This document shows, piece by piece, positions 7,266 through 52,302 of a stretch of 64,000 nucleotides of DNA. The notes beneath the pieces are model-generated. The model searched no databases. It was not told the origin of the DNA and saw nothing but the letters and a program-made list of their open reading frames with translations. Source of the stretch: Alphaproteobacteria bacterium (GTDB lineage Bacteria; Pseudomonadota; Alphaproteobacteria; RF32; CAG-239); NCBI GenBank assembly GCA_045634545.1, contig JAZRAL010000023.1:1161-65160 (forward strand), read 5' to 3'. Made by a program: the position numbers and the translations under genes. Each line of letters opens with the position of its first letter. Position 1 is the stretch's first letter.

Positions 7266-7342
7266 GGCGGAGTAGCTCAGTTGGTTAGAGCAGAGGAATC
7301 ATAATCCTTGTGTCGGGGGTTCGAATCCCTCCTTCGCTACCA
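7266..7342 (+). tRNA. tRNA-Met (anticodon CAT; elongator Met or lysidine-modified Ile2 cannot be told apart by eye)
   Basis: GGCGGAGTAGCTCAGTTGGTTAGAGC..., anticodon stem GAGGA/TCCTT, loop ATCATAA, T-loop GGGGGTTCGAATCCCTC, ACCA end. Confidence 0.9.
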
Positions 7343-7376: not shown

Positions 7377-7446
7377 TTGCTTTTTATTTTTTTTATGATA
7401 GATGTTTGCTGATTGAAAATTATTGTTTTATTTAAATATTATAATT

Positions 7447-8013
7447 ATGGCGTTAAAAAACTATAACAAAGAATGTGAACGAGCGGTTCTTTCTTACAAT
7501 AGTTTATGGAGGAATTTAAAAGCAATCTTTTTTGCTCATAGTTTTTCCTATCCTGTTGTTTATACAGATGGGTTTGTAAGTGAAGATAAAAAGGATAGAA
7601 ATGGTAGAACACCTTTAGGTATTGTTGTAAAGGGGGTTATTTTAAGAATTGATGCTCCAGATGAAAAAATGACACTTTCTGATGCCTTTGATTTGATGTT
7701 TGAAGATGTTTTTGCTGGATTTAATGCTTATCTTCCACCTTTTGAGGTGTTGCTATATGTAAGAAACCATATTAAAACCATTAATAGACTTCTAAAGGAG
7801 CTAGGAGGTACTGAATTTTTTGGTGATTGGTATGTAAGTTGTAATGAATATACAGAAGATACACCTAAAATTGGTGGTTTTGAAAATAAAAGAAATCTAT
7901 CTAATTTGAGAGCTTATGCTGTTCATATGAATTTACCTAGTTATGTTGGTAATTCATATAGTTTAGTCGGTGACAAGAACTTTATTCGTATTGTATATTG
8001 TCATCGTGGTTAA
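7447..8013 (+). CDS. hypothetical protein, paralog A (DUF1566-like C-terminal pattern)
   Basis: Shares 'YPVVYTDGF.S', 'P.GIVV.G.I', 'LP.F..L..........IN.L.KELGG.EF.G.WY.S' and a terminal 'FIR' with the next gene. Confidence 0.6.
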   Translation: MALKNYNKECERAVLSYNSLWRNLKAIFFAHSFSYPVVYTDGFVSEDKKDRNGRTPLGIVVKGVILRIDAPDEKMTLSDAFDLMFEDVFAGFNAYLPPFEVLLYVRNHIKTINRLLKELGGTEFFGDWYVSCNEYTEDTPKIGGFENKRNLSNLRAYAVHMNLPSYVGNSYSLVGDKNFIRIVYCHRG

Positions 8014-8052: not shown

Positions 8053-8126
8053 ATTGCTTTTTTTATTTTAGTTTGTATAGTGCTTAAGTTTTTTAGATTA
8101 TTGTGTGTATAATTAATGTAAATTTT

Positions 8127-8687
8127 ATGAGTAAAAACTTAAAATTAAAAAATGACGAAGTTAATCCTGTTGTGTTATTTATGTACAATGCGATTTTAGA
8201 TTTTTGGTTTAGGCTTGTTGAAAAATGTTACTGTTATCCGGTTGTTTATACTGATGGTTTTATTAGCAGATTAATTAAAGATAGCAAGGAGCGTGTTCCT
8301 TTTGGAATTGTTGTTAATGGTGAAATCATTATTCTTGAAGAGCCTGATAGTAAACTTACAGCCCAACAAGCAGAAGACTATGTTGAAAAGCGCTTTTTTG
8401 CAGGAAAAGATGCAACTCTTCCCTCTTTTGGCACTTTGAGTGTTATTAAAAAGAACATTCACAAAATTAATAAGCTAATGAAAGAATTGGGTGGAAAAGA
8501 GTTTAAAGGTGGATGGTATCGTAGTTCAAGTAAGCTTGAGCGTGGTTATTCGCTAAAAAAGCCTAGTCCGAATTTGCTCGTTGGCAAAAATATTCTAATG
8601 CTCCATATGAATAGTGATTATGGAATGCACGTTCCTTTTTGTGAAGATGATGATTTAACGTTTATCAGAGCTTCGTTTGTTTTATGA
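8127..8687 (+). CDS. hypothetical protein, paralog B (DUF1566-like C-terminal pattern)
   Basis: Tandem paralog of 7447..8013. 'ATLPSFGTLSVIKKNIHKINKLMKELGGKEFKGGWYRSSSK...TFIRASF' resembles the W.LP..eL...gG...yWSS...vRcV layout. Confidence 0.6.
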   Translation: MSKNLKLKNDEVNPVVLFMYNAILDFWFRLVEKCYCYPVVYTDGFISRLIKDSKERVPFGIVVNGEIIILEEPDSKLTAQQAEDYVEKRFFAGKDATLPSFGTLSVIKKNIHKINKLMKELGGKEFKGGWYRSSSKLERGYSLKKPSPNLLVGKNILMLHMNSDYGMHVPFCEDDDLTFIRASFVL

Positions 8688-8696
8688 GTTTTGGTA

Positions 8697-8746
8697 TAAA
8701 AAAAAGCCCCCAACTTATAGCATAAACTATAAATTGGGGGGATTTT
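8697..8746. terminator. bidirectional terminator between convergent genes
   Basis: Long hairpin CCCCCAA(C)TTATAG ... CTATAA(A)TTGGGGG with flanking A and T runs. Confidence 0.7.
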
Positions 8747-8973
8747 TAATATTTTAATTTATATTCTTTAAGACATGTTGCCATATCAAGCGGAGTTTTT
8801 ATGGTATCAATGCAGGTTATTGGTGGTTTTATGGGTTCTTTATAAATATATTCAGTATGCTTGCAAGCGTTTAATGACATTAGTATTACTAATATCCCTA
8901 TTCCAATCAAAGGTATCTTTTGAAGCTTCTTCATAGAGTTGTTTTTTTTGCTTTTCAAGTATGATTTTTTCAT
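8746..8973 (-). CDS. putative o-spanin (Rz1-like outer-membrane lipoprotein), overlapped architecture
   Basis: '...MKKLQKIPLIGIGILVILMSLNAC' is a signal peptide plus lipobox Cys. The mature part is about 39 aa, Pro-containing, with 2 more Cys. It starts inside the i-spanin gene in another frame and ends beyond it. An alternative start is at 8934. Confidence 0.55.
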   Translation of the reverse strand: MKKSYLKSKKNNSMKKLQKIPLIGIGILVILMSLNACKHTEYIYKEPIKPPITCIDTIKTPLDMATCLKEYKLKY

Positions 8974-9124
8974 TATATATATCCTTTATTTTTTGTGATA
9001 GATAGTTCAAGTTTTGTTGCTGAGATTTTGTTTGCTGATTTAAGGTGTTAATTTGTTTTTTTTGAATATAACAAATTAAGACTATGCCTAATAGCAATAG
9101 TAATAAAAATGTATTTAATTTCAT
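8852..9124 (-). CDS. putative i-spanin (Rz-like)
   Basis: N-terminal TM (LLLLLLGIVLICYI), a Q/K-rich coiled coil, and a C-terminal 'FDWNRDISNTNVIKRL' like the Rz 'W....P..V..L' end. An AAGGAA SD precedes the start. Confidence 0.55.
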   Translation of the reverse strand: MKLNTFLLLLLLGIVLICYIQKKQINTLNQQTKSQQQNLNYLSQKIKDIYNEKIILEKQKKQLYEEASKDTFDWNRDISNTNVIKRLQAY

Positions 9125-9152
9125 TTTTGTTCCTTTAAAATTGTGAAGAGCC

Positions 9153-9467
9153 CTATTCGGGCTCTTTGTTTTTGAGATTGAAAATAAATTTTAGTGGGTC
9201 TTTTTGTGCGGTTTTTAATATTTCATCAAATATCATATATAAACGCACAGCAAATAACCCACAAACTCCAGATATTCCATATTTTACAGGTTGAGGTATA
9301 TCTATATATTCAGCTAAAAGGCCGGCCAACATACTAACAATAAAAGTTATTAATATGTCTCTTATACTCTGTTTTATAGATATAAAAGGTTTGATTAAAA
9401 TGGTTATCAAACCTATAAATATTCCCCAAAGACTATAATCTGATATTATGTTTTTTATTTTATCCAT
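9153..9467 (-). CDS. putative class I (3-TM) phage holin
   Basis: 104 aa, three hydrophobic helices and a charged C-terminal tail (KDPLKFIFNLKNKEPE). SD AGGAGC; its start is 9 nt after the fibre-gene stop. Confidence 0.55.
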   Translation of the reverse strand: MDKIKNIISDYSLWGIFIGLITILIKPFISIKQSIRDILITFIVSMLAGLLAEYIDIPQPVKYGISGVCGLFAVRLYMIFDEILKTAQKDPLKFIFNLKNKEPE

Positions 9468-9475
9468 TTTAGCTC

Positions 9476-10348
9476 CTAACACAATATTACTATTGGAATT
9501 TCTATTGTTGATACAGACGGTATTTGTTTTAAATATAAACGAACAAACCCATCAAAGCTTTCAGATGTTGGTGCAATATTTCCAGAAGTTGCATCATTTA
9601 AATTTAATATAACTGATGGAGAATGTGTTGATTTGGCCTCGAGTATTGGTATGTCTAATGAATATGGATAATCAGAATAGCTATTATCTTCTTTTATTAA
9701 AGATGTTTCAAGCAAGATTGGGCCAAATTTTTGACAAGTTATATCATCTATTTTCTCCTTAGTGTAATAATTATTATCAAGATAATTTGCCACTCCTTTT
9801 GAGGTTATTAATTGATTGTTTGTAATAGAAACGGTATCAGTTGTTAGATTTAATAGTTCCTCATAAATAGAGGTTATGGTTTTTGCAAGTGTTGGAACTT
9901 TTTTGATTATGTCATAGTCTTTTTCTAATTCTAAAATAAGTTCACGTATTTGTTCTGGTGATACGTTTGAATTATGAGTGATTTTTATGGCTCTTTCAGA
10001 AATTTCTTTTAGCATTTGTAAAGACATTACGATTTTATCTAAAGAATTTTCATAATCAATTGCTGGAAATTTTTCACCCTCTATAAAAGTTGTTAGTTGA
10101 TTTAATGGTACATTTCTTACAATTGTGATAATTGTTTGGGATTTTGGAGGTATTGTGAATACAACTTCTTTTCCCGTTGTTTCTGATTTATTAGATATTG
10201 TATAGTCGATATTTTCTGTTAAAGGTATATCGCTATTATTTAAGTATACAGCTATATCTTCGTTAAAAAAGTAAAATGGAACAACAAATGATGAAGCTAT
10301 TCCATCGGCAATATATACAACTTTTGAAGTTTCTTTTTGTATAGTCAT
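9476..10348 (-). CDS. phage tail-fibre-like protein (T7 gp17 N-terminal domain type)
   Basis: 'VVYIADGIASSFVVPFYFFNEDIAVYL...IDYTIS...TIITIVRNVPLNQLTTFIEGEKFPAIDYENSLDKIVMSLQMLKE' parallels T7 gp17 'LTYQLDGSNRDFNIPFEYLARKFVVVTL...TDYRF...[41 protein letters not shown]'. Start at MTIQKE (10348) with a GGAGAA SD. Confidence 0.6.
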   Translation of the reverse strand: MTIQKETSKVVYIADGIASSFVVPFYFFNEDIAVYLNNSDIPLTENIDYTISNKSETTGKEVVFTIPPKSQTIITIVRNVPLNQLTTFIEGEKFPAIDYENSLDKIVMSLQMLKEISERAIKITHNSNVSPEQIRELILELEKDYDIIKKVPTLAKTITSIYEELLNLTTDTVSITNNQLITSKGVANYLDNNYYTKEKIDDITCQKFGPILLETSLIKEDNSYSDYPYSLDIPILEAKSTHSPSVILNLNDATSGNIAPTSESFDGFVRLYLKQIPSVSTIEIPIVILC

Positions 10349-10370
10349 TGTTTTCTCCTTATAATAAATA

Positions 10371-10397
10371 CAAAAAAACCGCAAAAAATGCGGTTTC
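10371..10397 (-). terminator. intrinsic terminator 2 in the leader of the fibre/lysis genes
   Basis: On the minus strand, AAACCGCA ttttt TGCGGTTT followed by T7. Confidence 0.65.
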
Positions 10398-10418
10398 TTA
10401 AATGTTAAAAAATTAATA

Positions 10419-10447
10419 TAAAAAAAGACTGGAAACCCAGTCTTTTG
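10419..10447 (-). terminator. intrinsic terminator 1 downstream of the 747-aa gene, in the leader of the fibre/lysis genes
   Basis: On the minus strand, AGACTGG gttt CCAGTCT followed by T7. Confidence 0.65.
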
Positions 10448-10475
10448 AATATGCAATAATGCTATTCTATTATTT

Positions 10476-10504
10476 TTTATATAAAAATATGTCACAAAAG
10501 TCAA
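10476..10504 (-). promoter_or_regulatory. putative sigma70 promoter upstream of two tandem terminators
   Basis: On the minus strand, TTGACT (10504-10499), 17-nt spacer, TATAAA (10481-10476). Confidence 0.45.
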
Positions 10505-10524
10505 TAGTTTTGGCTGTTTCTATT

Positions 10525-12768
10525 TTATCTTGTGTTATCTTTTTTGATTTTTTGAGGCGGATTATTGTAACTATCAACAAAAGCTTTACGAGTTTTGTAT
10601 GATAAGACAATTCCATTATGGCTTAATTTATTTTCTTTACCATTTATTTCCCAGATAGTATTATCTGAAAAAGTTATTATTGTTTTATTGTTTTTTGTTT
10701 CAAAATTTATTACAATAGTTTTATTTTCTGCAACATTTAGGTCATCACTTTTTAGTTTACATGAATTGTCAGTCTTTATTAAATGTGCTTCTGATGTTTT
10801 TATTATCTCGTTTGGTGATACATTAATTCTTCTACCATTTTCTATGTAAGAGATGATATTAAATTCTTTATCCAATATTATTTTAGAGTTTGGAGTTACA
10901 AAATAGTTTTTATCGCTTCCATCCATAAAGAGCTTTGCATTATCTGAAAAAGTTAATTTAGATTTTTTGAAATTGATAACTATGCCATGAGGTAATTTAA
11001 TAGAATTTATTTTTGTTCCTTCTAAGCTTATGCTCATATTGTTTGGATATTCTTCTGTATATTTTCCTATTGGAGAATATGCTTTTTTTTCGGTTTTTGT
11101 ATTTCCATTTGGTTCTATGATATTAATTATTTTCTTTTCTTCAAAATCAATTTCTACTATTTTGCCATCTTTGTGTTTAGCTAAAAATGTACCTTTATCT
11201 GTTCTTACAATTTGGGGTTTTAAGCTTTCTATTCTATCATTTAATTCTATTGCATCATCAACCATTTGAGGTAGTATATCTAACATTTGAGACGCTAGAT
11301 TATCACTTAAATAGTTATGACTTAATTCATTTCTTAAATATTTATATTGTTCCCAACGTTCGTTTTCTTTTTGGGTAATTATTTTTTGTTTAACAAGTTT
11401 ATTCCAACCTTGAGTTGGGGGACATTTTTCTCCAGAAAATAAATAATATTCTCCTATTTTATGCTCTAATATTTGAAATGTTTCTATGTATTTTTTTCGT
11501 TCCATATATAAAACTATGCGTTTTATGAAATCATTAATGTTTTCGCTTTGTATATTGTCAATTACTTCAACATTATCAAATAATTTATTTATAGAATTTA
11601 GCAGTGCGTTTTTCTTTTTTTCTCGATTTGGATATGATGTTTCTATGTAGATAGTAGTATCTTTGTTTTGTTTTCTGAATTCTTTAATTCTTTGAATAAA
11701 TTTATTATTACTTTCGTTAGAGCCTCTTATCAATAAAGTTGGATAGATGCCAGAAACTAAATCTTTAAAATTATCTGCTGTTTTTACGTATTTTGAAATA
11801 CGTTCTACAAAAGTGCCACTACATAAGCGTTGATATGATTCAAGATATCTGTTTCGTATTGATTTATTTTGATCATCTTGACCATTTATAAAGCGTCCAT
11901 ATCCATCTAAAGTTTCAAATTGGTGATGTAATAAATGTCTTATATTAAGAAAATCTTGTAACTGATGTGCACTTGGGATTAAATCTTGGCTTTCAGCTTT
12001 ACTTAAGTAGTTTGTTGGATGTTTTTTTATTAATAATGCTTTTAAGATATTATCTGTTTCTTCTGCTAAATTAGAAAGAGTTGATAATAACACATTTTCA
12101 TAAGGAGACATTATCTCCATTGTTAAACCTTCTGCGTTTGCTTGTTCAAATTTTGCTTTTTCTATATATCTGATATCTTCGTTAAAATATGCAGATATAC
12201 TTAAGATGCTTGATATATTTTTTATAAATTTTTCATCTTCAAAGGCATCTTGAATTGTAATATCGCTAAATGTAGAACCTATATATTTTAGTGAATATTT
12301 TCCATCAATGACAAACGTTATATCTTTTAGTTTCTTGTCTTTTTTATATGCAATTACATAACGTTCAATATTATGAGGAAGCGCATTTATGTGAGCATAT
12401 ACTCCATAATTAGCTGGAGTTGATTGCATAGGAGGGTATTTATTATTTTCAGGAAGAGTATTTGTTATACTTACAAATGATAAGTTTTCTGCATTATCAT
12501 CTAAATCTTTGCTTGCTATAAAATTTTCAAAATTATTTATTTCATTAATATTTGTAGTACCTAATTCCCAAGGCATAGCTCCATCTTGTGGGTCTTTAAT
12601 CATTTCTAGATGTCTACTTGCTAGGTATTTTGAAGAGTTCATTTGAGTTATTTGCTCAAAATTTCTAGATAAAAATATATAATCTCGGTATATGGCAAAC
12701 AACTGAGCTTTTTGTTTTGCACTTAGAGATGATGCATAAATAGATGCTATATTTGTATTTTTTTTCAT
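10525..12768 (-). CDS. 747-aa protein with two HEPN-type Rx4H motifs (tandem HI0074/NTase_sub_bind-like HEPN domains), unassigned N- and C-terminal regions
   Basis: R277HLLHH282 (nt 11923-11940) and R479NELSH484 (nt 11317-11334). The second lies in 'YIETFQILEHKIGEYYLFSGE...RWEQYKYLRNELSHNYLSDNLA', which follows the HI0074-type HEPN consensus layout. AAAGGA SD and its own promoter. Confidence 0.5.
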   Translation of the reverse strand: MKKNTNIASIYASSLSAKQKAQLFAIYRDYIFLSRNFEQITQMNSSKYLASRHLEMIKDPQDGAMPWELGTTNINEINNFENFIASKDLDDNAENLSFVSITNTLPENNKYPPMQSTPANYGVYAHINALPHNIERYVIAYKKDKKLKDITFVIDGKYSLKYIGSTFSDITIQDAFEDEKFIKNISSILSISAYFNEDIRYIEKAKFEQANAEGLTMEIMSPYENVLLSTLSNLAEETDNILKALLIKKHPTNYLSKAESQDLIPSAHQLQDFLNIRHLLHHQFETLDGYGRFINGQDDQNKSIRNRYLESYQRLCSGTFVERISKYVKTADNFKDLVSGIYPTLLIRGSNESNNKFIQRIKEFRKQNKDTTIYIETSYPNREKKKNALLNSINKLFDNVEVIDNIQSENINDFIKRIVLYMERKKYIETFQILEHKIGEYYLFSGEKCPPTQGWNKLVKQKIITQKENERWEQYKYLRNELSHNYLSDNLASQMLDILPQMVDDAIELNDRIESLKPQIVRTDKGTFLAKHKDGKIVEIDFEEKKIINIIEPNGNTKTEKKAYSPIGKYTEEYPNNMSISLEGTKINSIKLPHGIVINFKKSKLTFSDNAKLFMDGSDKNYFVTPNSKIILDKEFNIISYIENGRRINVSPNEIIKTSEAHLIKTDNSCKLKSDDLNVAENKTIVINFETKNNKTIITFSDNTIWEINGKENKLSHNGIVLSYKTRKAFVDSYNNPPQKIKKDNTR

Positions 12769-12795: not shown

Positions 12796-12824
12796 ATAAT
12801 ATGTTACTATATATCTTTTGTCAA
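12796..12824 (-). promoter_or_regulatory. putative sigma70 promoter of the 747-aa gene
   Basis: On the minus strand, TTGACA (12824-12819), 17-nt spacer, TATTAT (12801-12796). Confidence 0.45.
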
Positions 12825-12935
12825 TATTTTTGTTTAATTGTTTTTTGGTTTGAATGTGAAAAAATTAAAAAAATCTTTACGTTTTGTAACTATTATGATA
12901 GTATATTCTTAGTTTTAACTTAAGGTGTGATTAAT

Positions 12936-13511
12936 ATGTTTAAGTTTTTGGTTTGTTTTTTGGTTTTTATTTATTCTTATAATGCTAGAGCATTTGATGA
13001 TATTTATGCTTTAATTAATGCAGAAAATACTAGCGTATTTACTGAAAGACTTGCAGCAGGGTTTGATATTGATGATCAAGATTTAGAAGGAAATACTCCT
13101 TTAATGACTGCAGCTGCTCTTAATAAACCCAAGTTTGTTGCTTATTTATTGGAAATGGGGGCAAAAGTTGATTTAAGAAATTACTCTGGAATGTCTGCTC
13201 TACATAAGGCAGCTCTTGCTGGTAACAATGAGATTATTGATATATTAATAGATCATGGTGCAGAGGTCAATTTACCTGATTTAGATGGTTTTACCCCTTT
13301 GATGCTTGCTACAAGTACGGAAAAACGTTTTACTGTTGAATTATTGGTTCGCCGAGGGGCTTTAATTTCTTTTAAAAATAGTAAAGGTTTGAGTGCTATC
13401 GATATAGCTAGAAAAAAACGTTATGCTAAAATTCTTATTTTCTTAGAAAAAGAAGTGAAAAAAGTAAGAAAAGAGGAAAAAAAGCCTAATTATAGTTGGG
13501 ATATTGATTAA
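12936..13511 (+). CDS. secreted ankyrin-repeat protein
   Basis: Signal peptide MFKFLVCFLVFIYSYNARA. Three or four ANK repeats ('GNTPLMTAAALNKPKFVAYLLEMGAKVD', 'GMSALHKAALAGNNEIIDILIDHGAEVN', 'GFTPLMLA'). Confidence 0.85.
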   Translation: MFKFLVCFLVFIYSYNARAFDDIYALINAENTSVFTERLAAGFDIDDQDLEGNTPLMTAAALNKPKFVAYLLEMGAKVDLRNYSGMSALHKAALAGNNEIIDILIDHGAEVNLPDLDGFTPLMLATSTEKRFTVELLVRRGALISFKNSKGLSAIDIARKKRYAKILIFLEKEVKKVRKEEKKPNYSWDID

Positions 13512-43239: not shown

Positions 43240-43641
43240 ATGCTATTTAGATTAATTTTGTTTTTTAGTTTATATTCTTTTAATGCGTTTTCACAAACTA
43301 GTTGTTATACAAATAGCTTAGGTGTTTTGCATTGTAATACCTCAGATAATAGGCATATTATAGGAAGAACAACTGCTACTGGAGCAACTATTTTTAGTGA
43401 CAATCAAGGAAGAACTGTTACTAAAAGAACAAACTCTCTTGGAGTTACAACATATACAGATAATCAAGGAAATCAAACAAGAGCTAGAACAAATAGCTTG
43501 GGTGTCACAACTTATACTGATAACAATGGCAATAAAGTGCACTCTAAAACAAATAATTTAGGTGTTACAACATATACTGATAGCAATGGAAAAACCACGA
43601 GATGTAGAACAAATTCTTTAGGTAGAACTTATTGTCATTAA
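43240..43641 (+). CDS. small secreted protein made of six 20-aa tandem repeats with Cys-x9-Cys caps
   Basis: Signal peptide MLFRLILFFSLYSFNAFS. 'RTNSLGVTTYTDNQGNxxxx' recurs with an exact 20-residue period (T24, T44, T64, T84, T104, T124). C22/C32 and C122/C132. Confidence 0.7.
   Translation: MLFRLILFFSLYSFNAFSQTSCYTNSLGVLHCNTSDNRHIIGRTTATGATIFSDNQGRTVTKRTNSLGVTTYTDNQGNQTRARTNSLGVTTYTDNNGNKVHSKTNNLGVTTYTDSNGKTTRCRTNSLGRTYCH
43303..43638 (+). repeat. in-frame 60-nt tandem repeat array (about 5.5 units)
   Basis: See the CDS entry. Units diverge at the DNA level but keep the period. Confidence 0.8.
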
Positions 43642-51567: not shown

Positions 51568-52302
51568 ATGATAAAAAAAGTAGCTGGAATTTTGGGTGTT
51601 TTTTTATTGTCTGCATGTCATGTTGGACAACTTACGACTCTTTATACAGATAACACTTCTTATGATGTTGATGGTGTGAGGTTTGATGCTAACAACAAAC
51701 CTATTACAGGTTTATACCATAAATATTCTAAAACAATGAGATTAAAAGAAGAAATCCATTATGTTGATGGACTAATTAGTGGTCTTTATTTAGTTTATAA
51801 CAATAAAGGTAAGATTATTCTTAATGCGCAATATTATGAAGGCCTACCTCATGGTAAAGTTGTTCTATATTATGACAATGGTAAAGAACAAGAAGTTAGC
51901 TACTATAATGAAGGAAAACTTGATGGAAGTAGAATCTTTTATTATGAAAATGGTGATTTGCTTAGAAAAGAAAGTTATAAAAAAGGCAAAAAACATGGGT
52001 TAATTGAAGAATATTTCCATAATGGAGCAGTTAAACACTCGATTACTTATAATAAAGGAAAGCAAAACGGACCTCAAAGATATTATACCGAAGCAAATAA
52101 CCTTATTAGTTATTCTGAATTTGTTAAAGGTAAATGCAATGGGGTTACTCAAAGCTTTTACAAAAATGGAAAACCTCAAGTTTTGGCCAAATGTAAAAAT
52201 GGCAAATTGCACGGAAAGGCTAAATATTTTGATAAAAAAGGTAACCTTACTAATATTATCACATATGATACAGGACAAGAAATTAACAATGTAAAATTTT
52301 AA
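51568..52302 (+). CDS. MORN-repeat-variant lipoprotein (YwqK-like)
   Basis: Lipobox 'LLSAC'. Repeated 'G...G....YY.NGK' units (MORN_2 type). Confidence 0.75.
   Translation: MIKKVAGILGVFLLSACHVGQLTTLYTDNTSYDVDGVRFDANNKPITGLYHKYSKTMRLKEEIHYVDGLISGLYLVYNNKGKIILNAQYYEGLPHGKVVLYYDNGKEQEVSYYNEGKLDGSRIFYYENGDLLRKESYKKGKKHGLIEEYFHNGAVKHSITYNKGKQNGPQRYYTEANNLISYSEFVKGKCNGVTQSFYKNGKPQVLAKCKNGKLHGKAKYFDKKGNLTNIITYDTGQEINNVKF

Follow-up and report, generated by a model that had tools for sequence, protein, structure and literature searches.

A fast-evolving protein family of host-associated Alphaproteobacteria with two HEPN-type modules in one chain, a predicted single-chain RNase

A 64-kb stretch of alphaproteobacterial DNA (contig JAZRAL010000023.1, 64,000 nt; hereafter the window) carries a gene for a 747-aa protein that is probably a single-chain, pseudo-dimeric and metal-independent RNase of the HEPN superfamily. 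The active sites of HEPN RNases are formed when two Rx4-6H motifs are brought together. Such enzymes underlie Cas13, the type III CRISPR effectors, the most abundant class of toxin-antitoxin systems and several abortive-infection systems. To our knowledge, proteins with two HEPN domains in a single chain are rare outside CRISPR. The domain class in question, HepT/NTase_sub_bind HEPN, is a known one; the architecture is unannotated and new within a known superfamily.

The earlier note on this DNA, made from the sequence alone, had described two Rx4H motifs lying 202 residues apart in the protein. Exactly two such motifs were found, at the positions claimed (Table 1). The pair by itself is mildly unusual, since at least two Rx4H motifs are expected in a shuffled 747-aa protein with P = 0.077 and at least two R[NHD]xxxH motifs with P = 0.003; the weight comes from conservation. 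A word-indexed search retrieved 11 relatives, and the same 11 were obtained when the deep alignment was used as the query. The exhaustive hidden Markov model (HMM) search of 1.84 billion cluster representatives gave 115 matches. About 60 of them (50% clustering) are full length at 700-813 aa and share one architecture from end to end; the remaining matches look like fragments, and none has a different architecture. Where the source names the family members at all, they are called "hypothetical protein".

Conservation was counted in an alignment of 49 full-length homologues showing 23-48% identity; these are the members referred to below. Only nine columns are invariant in this alignment, namely Y27, P131, E224, A258, R277, H282, R323, R479 and H484. 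The Rx4H motifs gain their significance from the fact that all four of their Arg and His residues are invariant while so few other columns are. Conservation of both motifs among homologues, which had been named as a check on the proposal, is therefore complete (R and H in 49/49).

The consensus of motif 1 is N-I-R-[H/N/D]-h-h-x-H-Q-W-D, and that of motif 2 is L-R-N-x-L-S-H-x-Y. The HEPN active site also includes a polar residue (N, D or H) after the Arg and a conserved upstream acidic residue (PMC3710099). In the family, position 278, which follows R277, is occupied by H in 31 members, N in 16 and D in 2, and position 480, which follows R479, is N in 45 of the 49. The upstream acidic residue is E224 for the first motif (49/49) and position 435 for the second (E in 42 members and D in 4). 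Thus, both modules possess the Rx4-6H motif, the polar residue next to the Arg and the upstream acidic residue. Y486 of the second motif is present in 32 members.

An HxxHH metal-site reading of motif 1 was tried and rejected. It had been prompted by a local similarity of RHLLHH to the His-rich stretch LN(L)GHTFGHAIE..GYG in the Zn-binding region of 3-dehydroquinate synthase, which was weak (E 0.19 or worse). The reading also disagrees with the conservation pattern, in which positions H278 (H/N/D) and H281 (R/H) vary and only R277 and H282 are kept.

Module 2, which contains the second motif, is assigned by sequence comparison to the HepT/NTase_sub_bind class of HEPN domains, in agreement with the HI0074/NTase_sub_bind class suggested before. 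PF01934 (HepT-like) is matched by 39 members (best 1.2e-8) and PF08780 (NTase_sub_bind) by 30 (best 4.5e-6), while the window protein itself matches PF01934 with E 9e-4 and 19.4 bits over its full length. Further HEPN-type matches among the members are to DUF4145, HepT-like_2 and HEPN_Swt1. Besides PF01934 and PF08780, only DUF4145 recurs, a family placed in the HEPN superfamily by the 2013 census (PMC3710099). The profile of the core alignment gave five matches in the PDB, all of them HEPN proteins (7ae9, 8xdj, 8yuf, 1jog, which is HI0074, and 7ae6), with their catalytic RNxxxH aligned to the LRNxLSH of the family. The comparison with Pfam HEPN-clan models, which the earlier note had proposed, is consequently borne out by family-wide matches in module 2 and falls short for the window protein, whose own score is sub-threshold.

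Module 1 appears, with moderate to good confidence, to be a divergent second HEPN domain. In the AlphaFold2 (AF2) model it consists of a long helix with E224, a short helix, a helix ending in NIR[HND]hhxHQ, a disordered loop and two helices with R323. Searches with shallow alignments produced nothing tying this module to HEPN, and hhalign comparison of module 1 with module 2 using 9 sequences each detected no similarity. With the 49-sequence profiles, hhalign aligned the two modules over 85 columns with a score of 28.5 and P = 1.4e-4, placing R277 on R479 and H282 on H484. The null scores from 120 column shuffles were 12.2 ± 2.6 with a maximum of 22.0, and the reversed profile scored 17.9. Scanned alone, module 1 matched PF08780 in 5 of 32 members (best 0.0017), which was the sole Pfam family found in more than one member, and PF01934 in one member (E 3.5e-4). 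The in-register alignment, the shuffle null and the few PF08780 matches together support, at moderate strength, the proposal of a second HEPN domain around the first motif.

The full-length AF2 model was of moderate confidence, with a predicted local distance difference test score (pLDDT) of 74.6. The core (aa 200-520), modelled with a 29-sequence alignment, reached a pLDDT of 88.2 and a predicted template modelling score (pTM) of 0.79. Both modules of the core model follow one helix order (long, short, helix ending in Rx4H, long) and are separated by a beta-alpha-beta-alpha-beta insert of about 60 aa, with E352, S353, N354, F357, R360 and D404 as its conserved residues. No nucleotidyltransferase-family match recurred among the members of the core alignment, insert included. 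When the core was compared with the PDB by Foldseek, the high-probability matches were HEPN structures with a target-normalised TM of 0.5-0.66 and root-mean-square deviations of 2-3 Å. The leading ones were 7bxo_F (probability 0.99, target-normalised TM 0.61, 2.3 Å over 96 columns) and 6m6u_H (0.97), and the others were 5yep_B, 7ae6_B, 8xdj_B, 8yuf_B, 1wty_B, 1wwp_A, 2hsb and 1ylm_A. These matches are suggestive of a HEPN fold in the modelled core. Foldseek with the full-length model against PDB and viral libraries listed WD40-, G-box- and MORN-type beta folds, which presumably belong to the C-terminal beta domain and are uninformative on the helical core.

The flanking regions are less clear. 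The N-terminal 203 residues consist of a helical start and small beta elements; aa 85-140 are a linker modelled with low confidence, and Y27 and P131 are invariant. No Pfam family recurs there among the members, and the region of about 200 aa is as unassignable as the earlier note had stated. The C-terminal part of about 230 aa was likewise correctly described as beta-rich and repeat-like: AF2 places only strands from aa 519 to 717, and an internal repeat of about 30 residues gives a moderate signal (hhalign probability 84%). Its closest Foldseek match is the single-layer sheet of the CPAP G-box/TCP10 domain (probability 1.0, E 2e-4, low TM). At the very end of the chain (aa 739-747; window 10528-10554, minus strand), the terminal residue is Arg in 37 members and Lys in 3 more. 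It is preceded by a variable, disordered and mostly basic tail that matches no assigned signal.

Table 1. Features of the window discussed in the text, with window coordinates
Feature	Position (nt)	Strand	Details or basis
Double-HEPN gene	10525..12768	-	747 aa, ATG start, stop codon 10525-10527
Rx4H motif 1, RHLLHH, R277-H282	11923..11940	-	R and H in 49/49 members
Rx4H motif 2, RNELSH, R479-H484, then Y486	11317..11334	-	R and H in 49/49 members
Sigma-70-type promoter TTGACA-N17-TATTAT	12796..12824	-	Best match in region, 11/12
N-terminal region, aa 1-203	12160..12768	-	AF2 secondary structure and pLDDT
Predicted HEPN module 1, aa 204-345	11734..12159	-	Helix layout, hhalign against module 2, weak Pfam matches
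Alpha/beta insert between modules, aa 346-407	11548..11733	-	AF2 core model, conservation counts
HEPN module 2, aa 408-518	11215..11547	-	PF01934/PF08780 matches, PDB profile matches
C-terminal beta-hairpin-repeat domain, aa 519-747	10528..11214	-	All-beta in AF2, Foldseek, internal repeat signal
Ankyrin-repeat protein	12927-13511	+	Signal-peptide-like N-terminus
Whole phage-derived cassette	8707-10524	-	Fibre N-terminal domain, holin, spanins
Fibre-like gene, 290 aa	9476-10348	-	First ~125 aa match podovirus tail-fibre N-termini
Holin	9153-9482	-	LydA-like; PHROGs match and sub-threshold Pfam match
i-spanin, Rz-like	8852-9124	-	PHROGs
o-spanin-like lipoprotein	8746-8973	-	Overlaps i-spanin
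Terminator of cassette	8707-8740	-
tRNA-Met	7266-7342	+	Outer boundary of cassette; L030 counterpart 8291-8365

According to the proposed scheme, two HEPN domains of the HepT/NTase_sub_bind type (aa ~204-345 and ~408-518) would be fused in one chain through the insert of about 60 aa. R277/H282 and R479/H484, aided by E224 and E435, would line one composite cleft of an intramolecular pseudo-dimer. We infer this pairing within a single chain because both modules keep the full catalytic set in every homologue. The composite cleft would then act as a metal-independent endoribonuclease. The lineage-specific N-terminal domain and the C-terminal domain may hold the nuclease inactive, or target it, until a signal arrives; a gating or targeting function is proposed for them since there is no antitoxin gene nearby. 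Such an arrangement would have arisen from HepT-like domains independently of, and in analogy to, Cas13. If true, HepT-like dimers would have given rise to a one-chain nuclease by a second and independent path, and the protein could be a compact antitoxin-free RNase scaffold.

Several points weigh against this scheme. The hhalign probability of the alignment between modules 1 and 2 is 53%, and module 1 has no significant sequence match in the PDB. For PF01934 the window protein stays below the gathering score of 23.5 (19.4 bits at full length, 22.7 for the core). For the core, Foldseek gave weak E-values (0.46-4) without specifying the module that was matched. On the biological side, a constitutively transcribed toxin without an antitoxin would be unusual, and stable vertical inheritance is atypical of defence genes.

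Module 2 belongs to the same HEPN class as HepT of the type VII HepT/MntA systems (PF01934; 5yep, 6m6u, 7bxo, 7ae6/7ae9, 8xdj) and shares RNxxxHxY with it, the Tyr of the HepT Rx4HxY being the residue AMPylated by MntA (PMC7641770). HepT, however, is a stand-alone homodimer of about 130-150 aa neutralised by an adjacent minimal nucleotidyltransferase (MNT), whereas the window protein has 747 aa, two HEPN modules and no MNT. It scores 16.3 bits with NCBIfam HepT_toxin, for which the cut-off is 60. These features place it outside the HepT/MntA systems.

Cas13, including the compact Cas13an, likewise has two HEPN domains in one chain and pairs them intramolecularly (PMC12165695). The HEPN domains of Cas13an group with AbiD/F (PMC12165695), while those of the window protein are HepT/NTase_sub_bind-like. 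No CRISPR-like array or repeats were found anywhere in the window, and no Cas13 is among the Foldseek matches listed. RNA guidance is a feature of Cas13, and the window protein shows no evidence for it.

The statement that, Cas13 apart, two HEPN domains in one chain are seen in conflict-system RNases is not fully accurate. It overlooks CnuE of type III-A CoCoNuT systems, a bacterial protein outside CRISPR whose single chain likewise contains two HEPN domains (PMC11090510). CnuE is encoded in McrBC-like operons, and the motif of its second HEPN is shortened to RxH, whereas the window gene stands alone with its own promoter and encodes two full Rx4H motifs. ApeA and other single-gene HEPN defence proteins (AbiD/F, AbiJ, PrrC, RloC) are similar in being large, combining HEPN with lineage-specific putative sensor domains and having no separate antitoxin. 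ApeA contains one HEPN and homodimerises (ApeA preprint). The present family differs from these proteins in its vertical rather than patchy inheritance. PADLOC-DB 2.0 gave no match to the window protein at E <= 10 and singleton matches only among the 49 members, with no recurring model. The lack of annotation and of a CRISPR or MNT partner agrees with the original description of the architecture.

The family is restricted to one group of host-associated (gut, rumen) uncultured Alphaproteobacteria. Upstream of the HEPN gene and divergent from it lie genes for a secreted ankyrin-repeat protein (Ank) and HtpG. The arrangement of HEPN gene, phage-derived cassette and HtpG-Ank is kept in about 20 species-level loci from metagenome-assembled genomes (MAGs) of gut and rumen Alphaproteobacteria. 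Across those genomes identity is about 80% for HtpG, about 73% for MatE and 70-81% for the holin. The 747-aa protein is only 32-49% identical and is therefore fast-evolving. Every orthologous HtpG-Ank locus with sufficient flank contains the gene, and no empty site was seen. An Ank-anchored metagenome search for empty sites retrieved 4 orthologous loci; the gene is found in 3 of them, and the fourth is cut off on that side. Ank is too generic an anchor owing to its ankyrin repeats. The Ank-HEPN gene pairing occurs in every HtpG-linked locus, and no Ank match was found beside the distant members. Thus, the HEPN gene behaves as a vertically inherited, fast-evolving chromosomal resident of gut and rumen Alphaproteobacteria.

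The gene has a conserved sigma-70-type promoter of its own. The TTGACA-N17-TATTAT promoter reported before was recovered, and its -35 box, TTGACAAAA, is invariant across 8 loci, including locus L030, which has no cassette. Assembly JAZUMA01, one MAG, holds two divergent paralogues, L023 and L030, whose identity to the window protein is 30% and 31%. Of the two, one is situated at an HtpG-Ank locus and the other between phosphopentomutase-like and Era-like genes.

A nuclease acting in conflict or stress would fit the fast evolution and the HepT ancestry, while the fixed vertical inheritance and the conservation of the sigma-70-type promoter point to a cellular function specific to the lineage. 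Neither role is given as much as an even chance, and each is proposed tentatively. The most far-reaching form of the proposal is less likely than not. It would make the protein a chromosomally entrenched immune or stress sensor of a new family, acting alone and at the RNA level, with a core and fast-evolving gene of the clade encoding a non-CRISPR, Cas13-style single-site RNase of independent origin, sensor-gated and antitoxin-free.

Somewhat less probable is that the protein, rather than being a toxin or an immune effector, processes RNA as a housekeeping or stress enzyme specific to the lineage, with a logic like that of Las1, Ire1 or RNase L. The occurrence at every orthologous HtpG-Ank locus examined and the conserved promoter of its own fit such an enzyme. 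So does the fact that the gene itself bears no antitoxin, defence-island or mobile-element signature and has no copies in phage records or IMG/VR. The identity of 32-49%, set against the values for HtpG, MatE and the holin, is more typical of conflict genes. The confinement to a single host-associated alphaproteobacterial group and the two divergent paralogues in one genome also speak against a housekeeping enzyme.

It is rather unlikely that the protein is a HEPN RNase with active sites formed between chains, where each module of a homodimer would pair with its counterpart or with the other module to give two clefts. Most non-CRISPR HEPN proteins do homodimerise (PMC12165695; ApeA preprint), the two modules are separated by a folded insert of 60 aa, and HepT, the nearest relative of module 2, forms dimers. 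The full catalytic set in both modules of all 49 members is nevertheless most simply explained if the modules complement each other, and the pTM of 0.79 reached by the core as a monomer points to a defined arrangement within the chain.

Very improbable is the absence of nuclease activity, with the HEPN-like modules acting as non-catalytic helical bundles that bind nucleotides or proteins, like the C-terminal domain of kanamycin nucleotidyltransferase. The name of PF08780 refers to substrate binding and some HEPN domains are inactive binders, but inactive HEPNs lose the charged and polar residues of the motif (PMC3710099), whereas R, H, the polar residue after the Arg and the upstream Glu are all kept in both modules throughout this family.

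The possibility least in accord with the data is that the gene is part of the phage cassette, filling the internal virion (ejection) protein slot in the remnant of a T7-like podovirus right arm. On the T7 map, the order is gp16, gp17, gp17.5 and gp18.5/18.7, which is mirrored by the large protein, fibre, holin and spanins. The adjacency of gene and cassette is kept in the roughly 20 loci, and the fibre N-terminus matches podophage fibres (E 1e-11 to 1e-16), one of which adjoins an "internal virion protein". Yet at L030 the gene has no cassette and tRNA-Met stands next to it, distant members are located in housekeeping contexts, and the cassette comes with a conserved promoter block of its own that occurs at no cassette-free locus. 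No homologue was detected in 50,697 GenBank phage records (tblastn), beside a tail fibre or elsewhere, or in IMG/VR, and the window protein had no significant PHROGs match.

On the 3' side of the HEPN gene and on the same strand, the cassette comprises the fibre-like gene, a LydA-like holin, an Rz-like spanin and an overlapping lipoprotein open reading frame (ORF). It appears to be under purifying selection. On its far side it is bounded by tRNA-Met in all loci of the clade. At L030, HtpG, Ank and the HEPN-family gene are followed by tRNA-Met directly, with no fibre, holin or spanin gene. Distant members (27-31% identity) are found among Era, phosphopentomutase, PPIase, GpsA, Psd and aminotransferase genes. 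Because of the cassette-less L030 and these housekeeping contexts, the cassette is best interpreted as what is left of a prophage that integrated at tRNA-Met beside a pre-existing HEPN gene. The tRNA is likely to be the ancient integration site; no integrase or att repeat was found. The adjoining phage genes would then represent a tRNA-targeted insertion and should not be taken as functional context.

For this reason the phage-linked toxin, effector or abortive-infection role that the earlier note had drawn from the phage surroundings is not supported; the lack of phage and IMG/VR homologues, the lack of a recurring PADLOC family and the vertical inheritance count against it as well. Its observation that no MNT gene adjoins is upheld by the neighbour scans. 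Pfam gave ankyrin repeats, HSP90, MatE and a sub-threshold holin and had no match for the remaining ORFs, PHROGs gave tail-fibre, holin and spanin, and neither gave a nucleotidyltransferase. No MNT partner was seen beside the family gene at other loci.

No recognisable endolysin is encoded in the window's cassette. The larger island of L007 contains a 147-aa ORF (L007:11329-11772) with a weak endolysin-family match (phrog_315, E 1.5e-5), which may be a remnant of the endolysin missing from the window. The extra island ORFs of L007 and L011 gave nothing beyond this match.

Ahead of the fibre gene (window ~10373-10504, minus strand) is a promoter-like block, TTGACAT-N3-TGACAT ... TAGAAT. One or two intrinsic terminators come after it, and then a ribosome-binding site and the ATG of the fibre gene. 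The same block of promoter and hairpins was found in L001, L004, L005, L006, L009 and L011, and only at cassette-bearing loci. The hairpins vary in sequence and keep their structure. Such a layout is reminiscent of late promoters of phages, with a leader terminator under antitermination control. No Rfam family was matched in the region, the block included. The block was also considered as a non-coding RNA partner of the HEPN gene and rejected, being confined to cassette-bearing loci and absent from L030.

Between tRNA-Met and the spanins lie two paralogous ORFs of 196 and 194 aa (window 7423-8013 and 8103-8687, plus strand), which share the core "YPVVYTDGF" and have no Pfam or PHROGs match. 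L001, L004 and L017 each have a single copy of this ORF, and most other loci lack it. Another ORF, of 124 aa, is located directly upstream of the family gene and co-directional with it in L020 (1575-1949) and L027 (5528-5902), the two copies being 53% identical to each other. As it occurs at these two loci only, it was rejected as a general small partner and could be a clade-specific one.

In L024 (6582-7967) and L028 (4350-5876), the family gene is adjoined by genes for YxxNG-periodic repeat proteins, presumably of the MORN type, and a related ORF lies at window ~51568-52302. The adjacency may be coincidental. Two tandem repeats occur elsewhere in the window, both within ORFs: three copies of 60 nt at 43444-43623 (ORF 43240-43641) and four copies of 33 nt at 26638-26769 (ORF 26483-26893).

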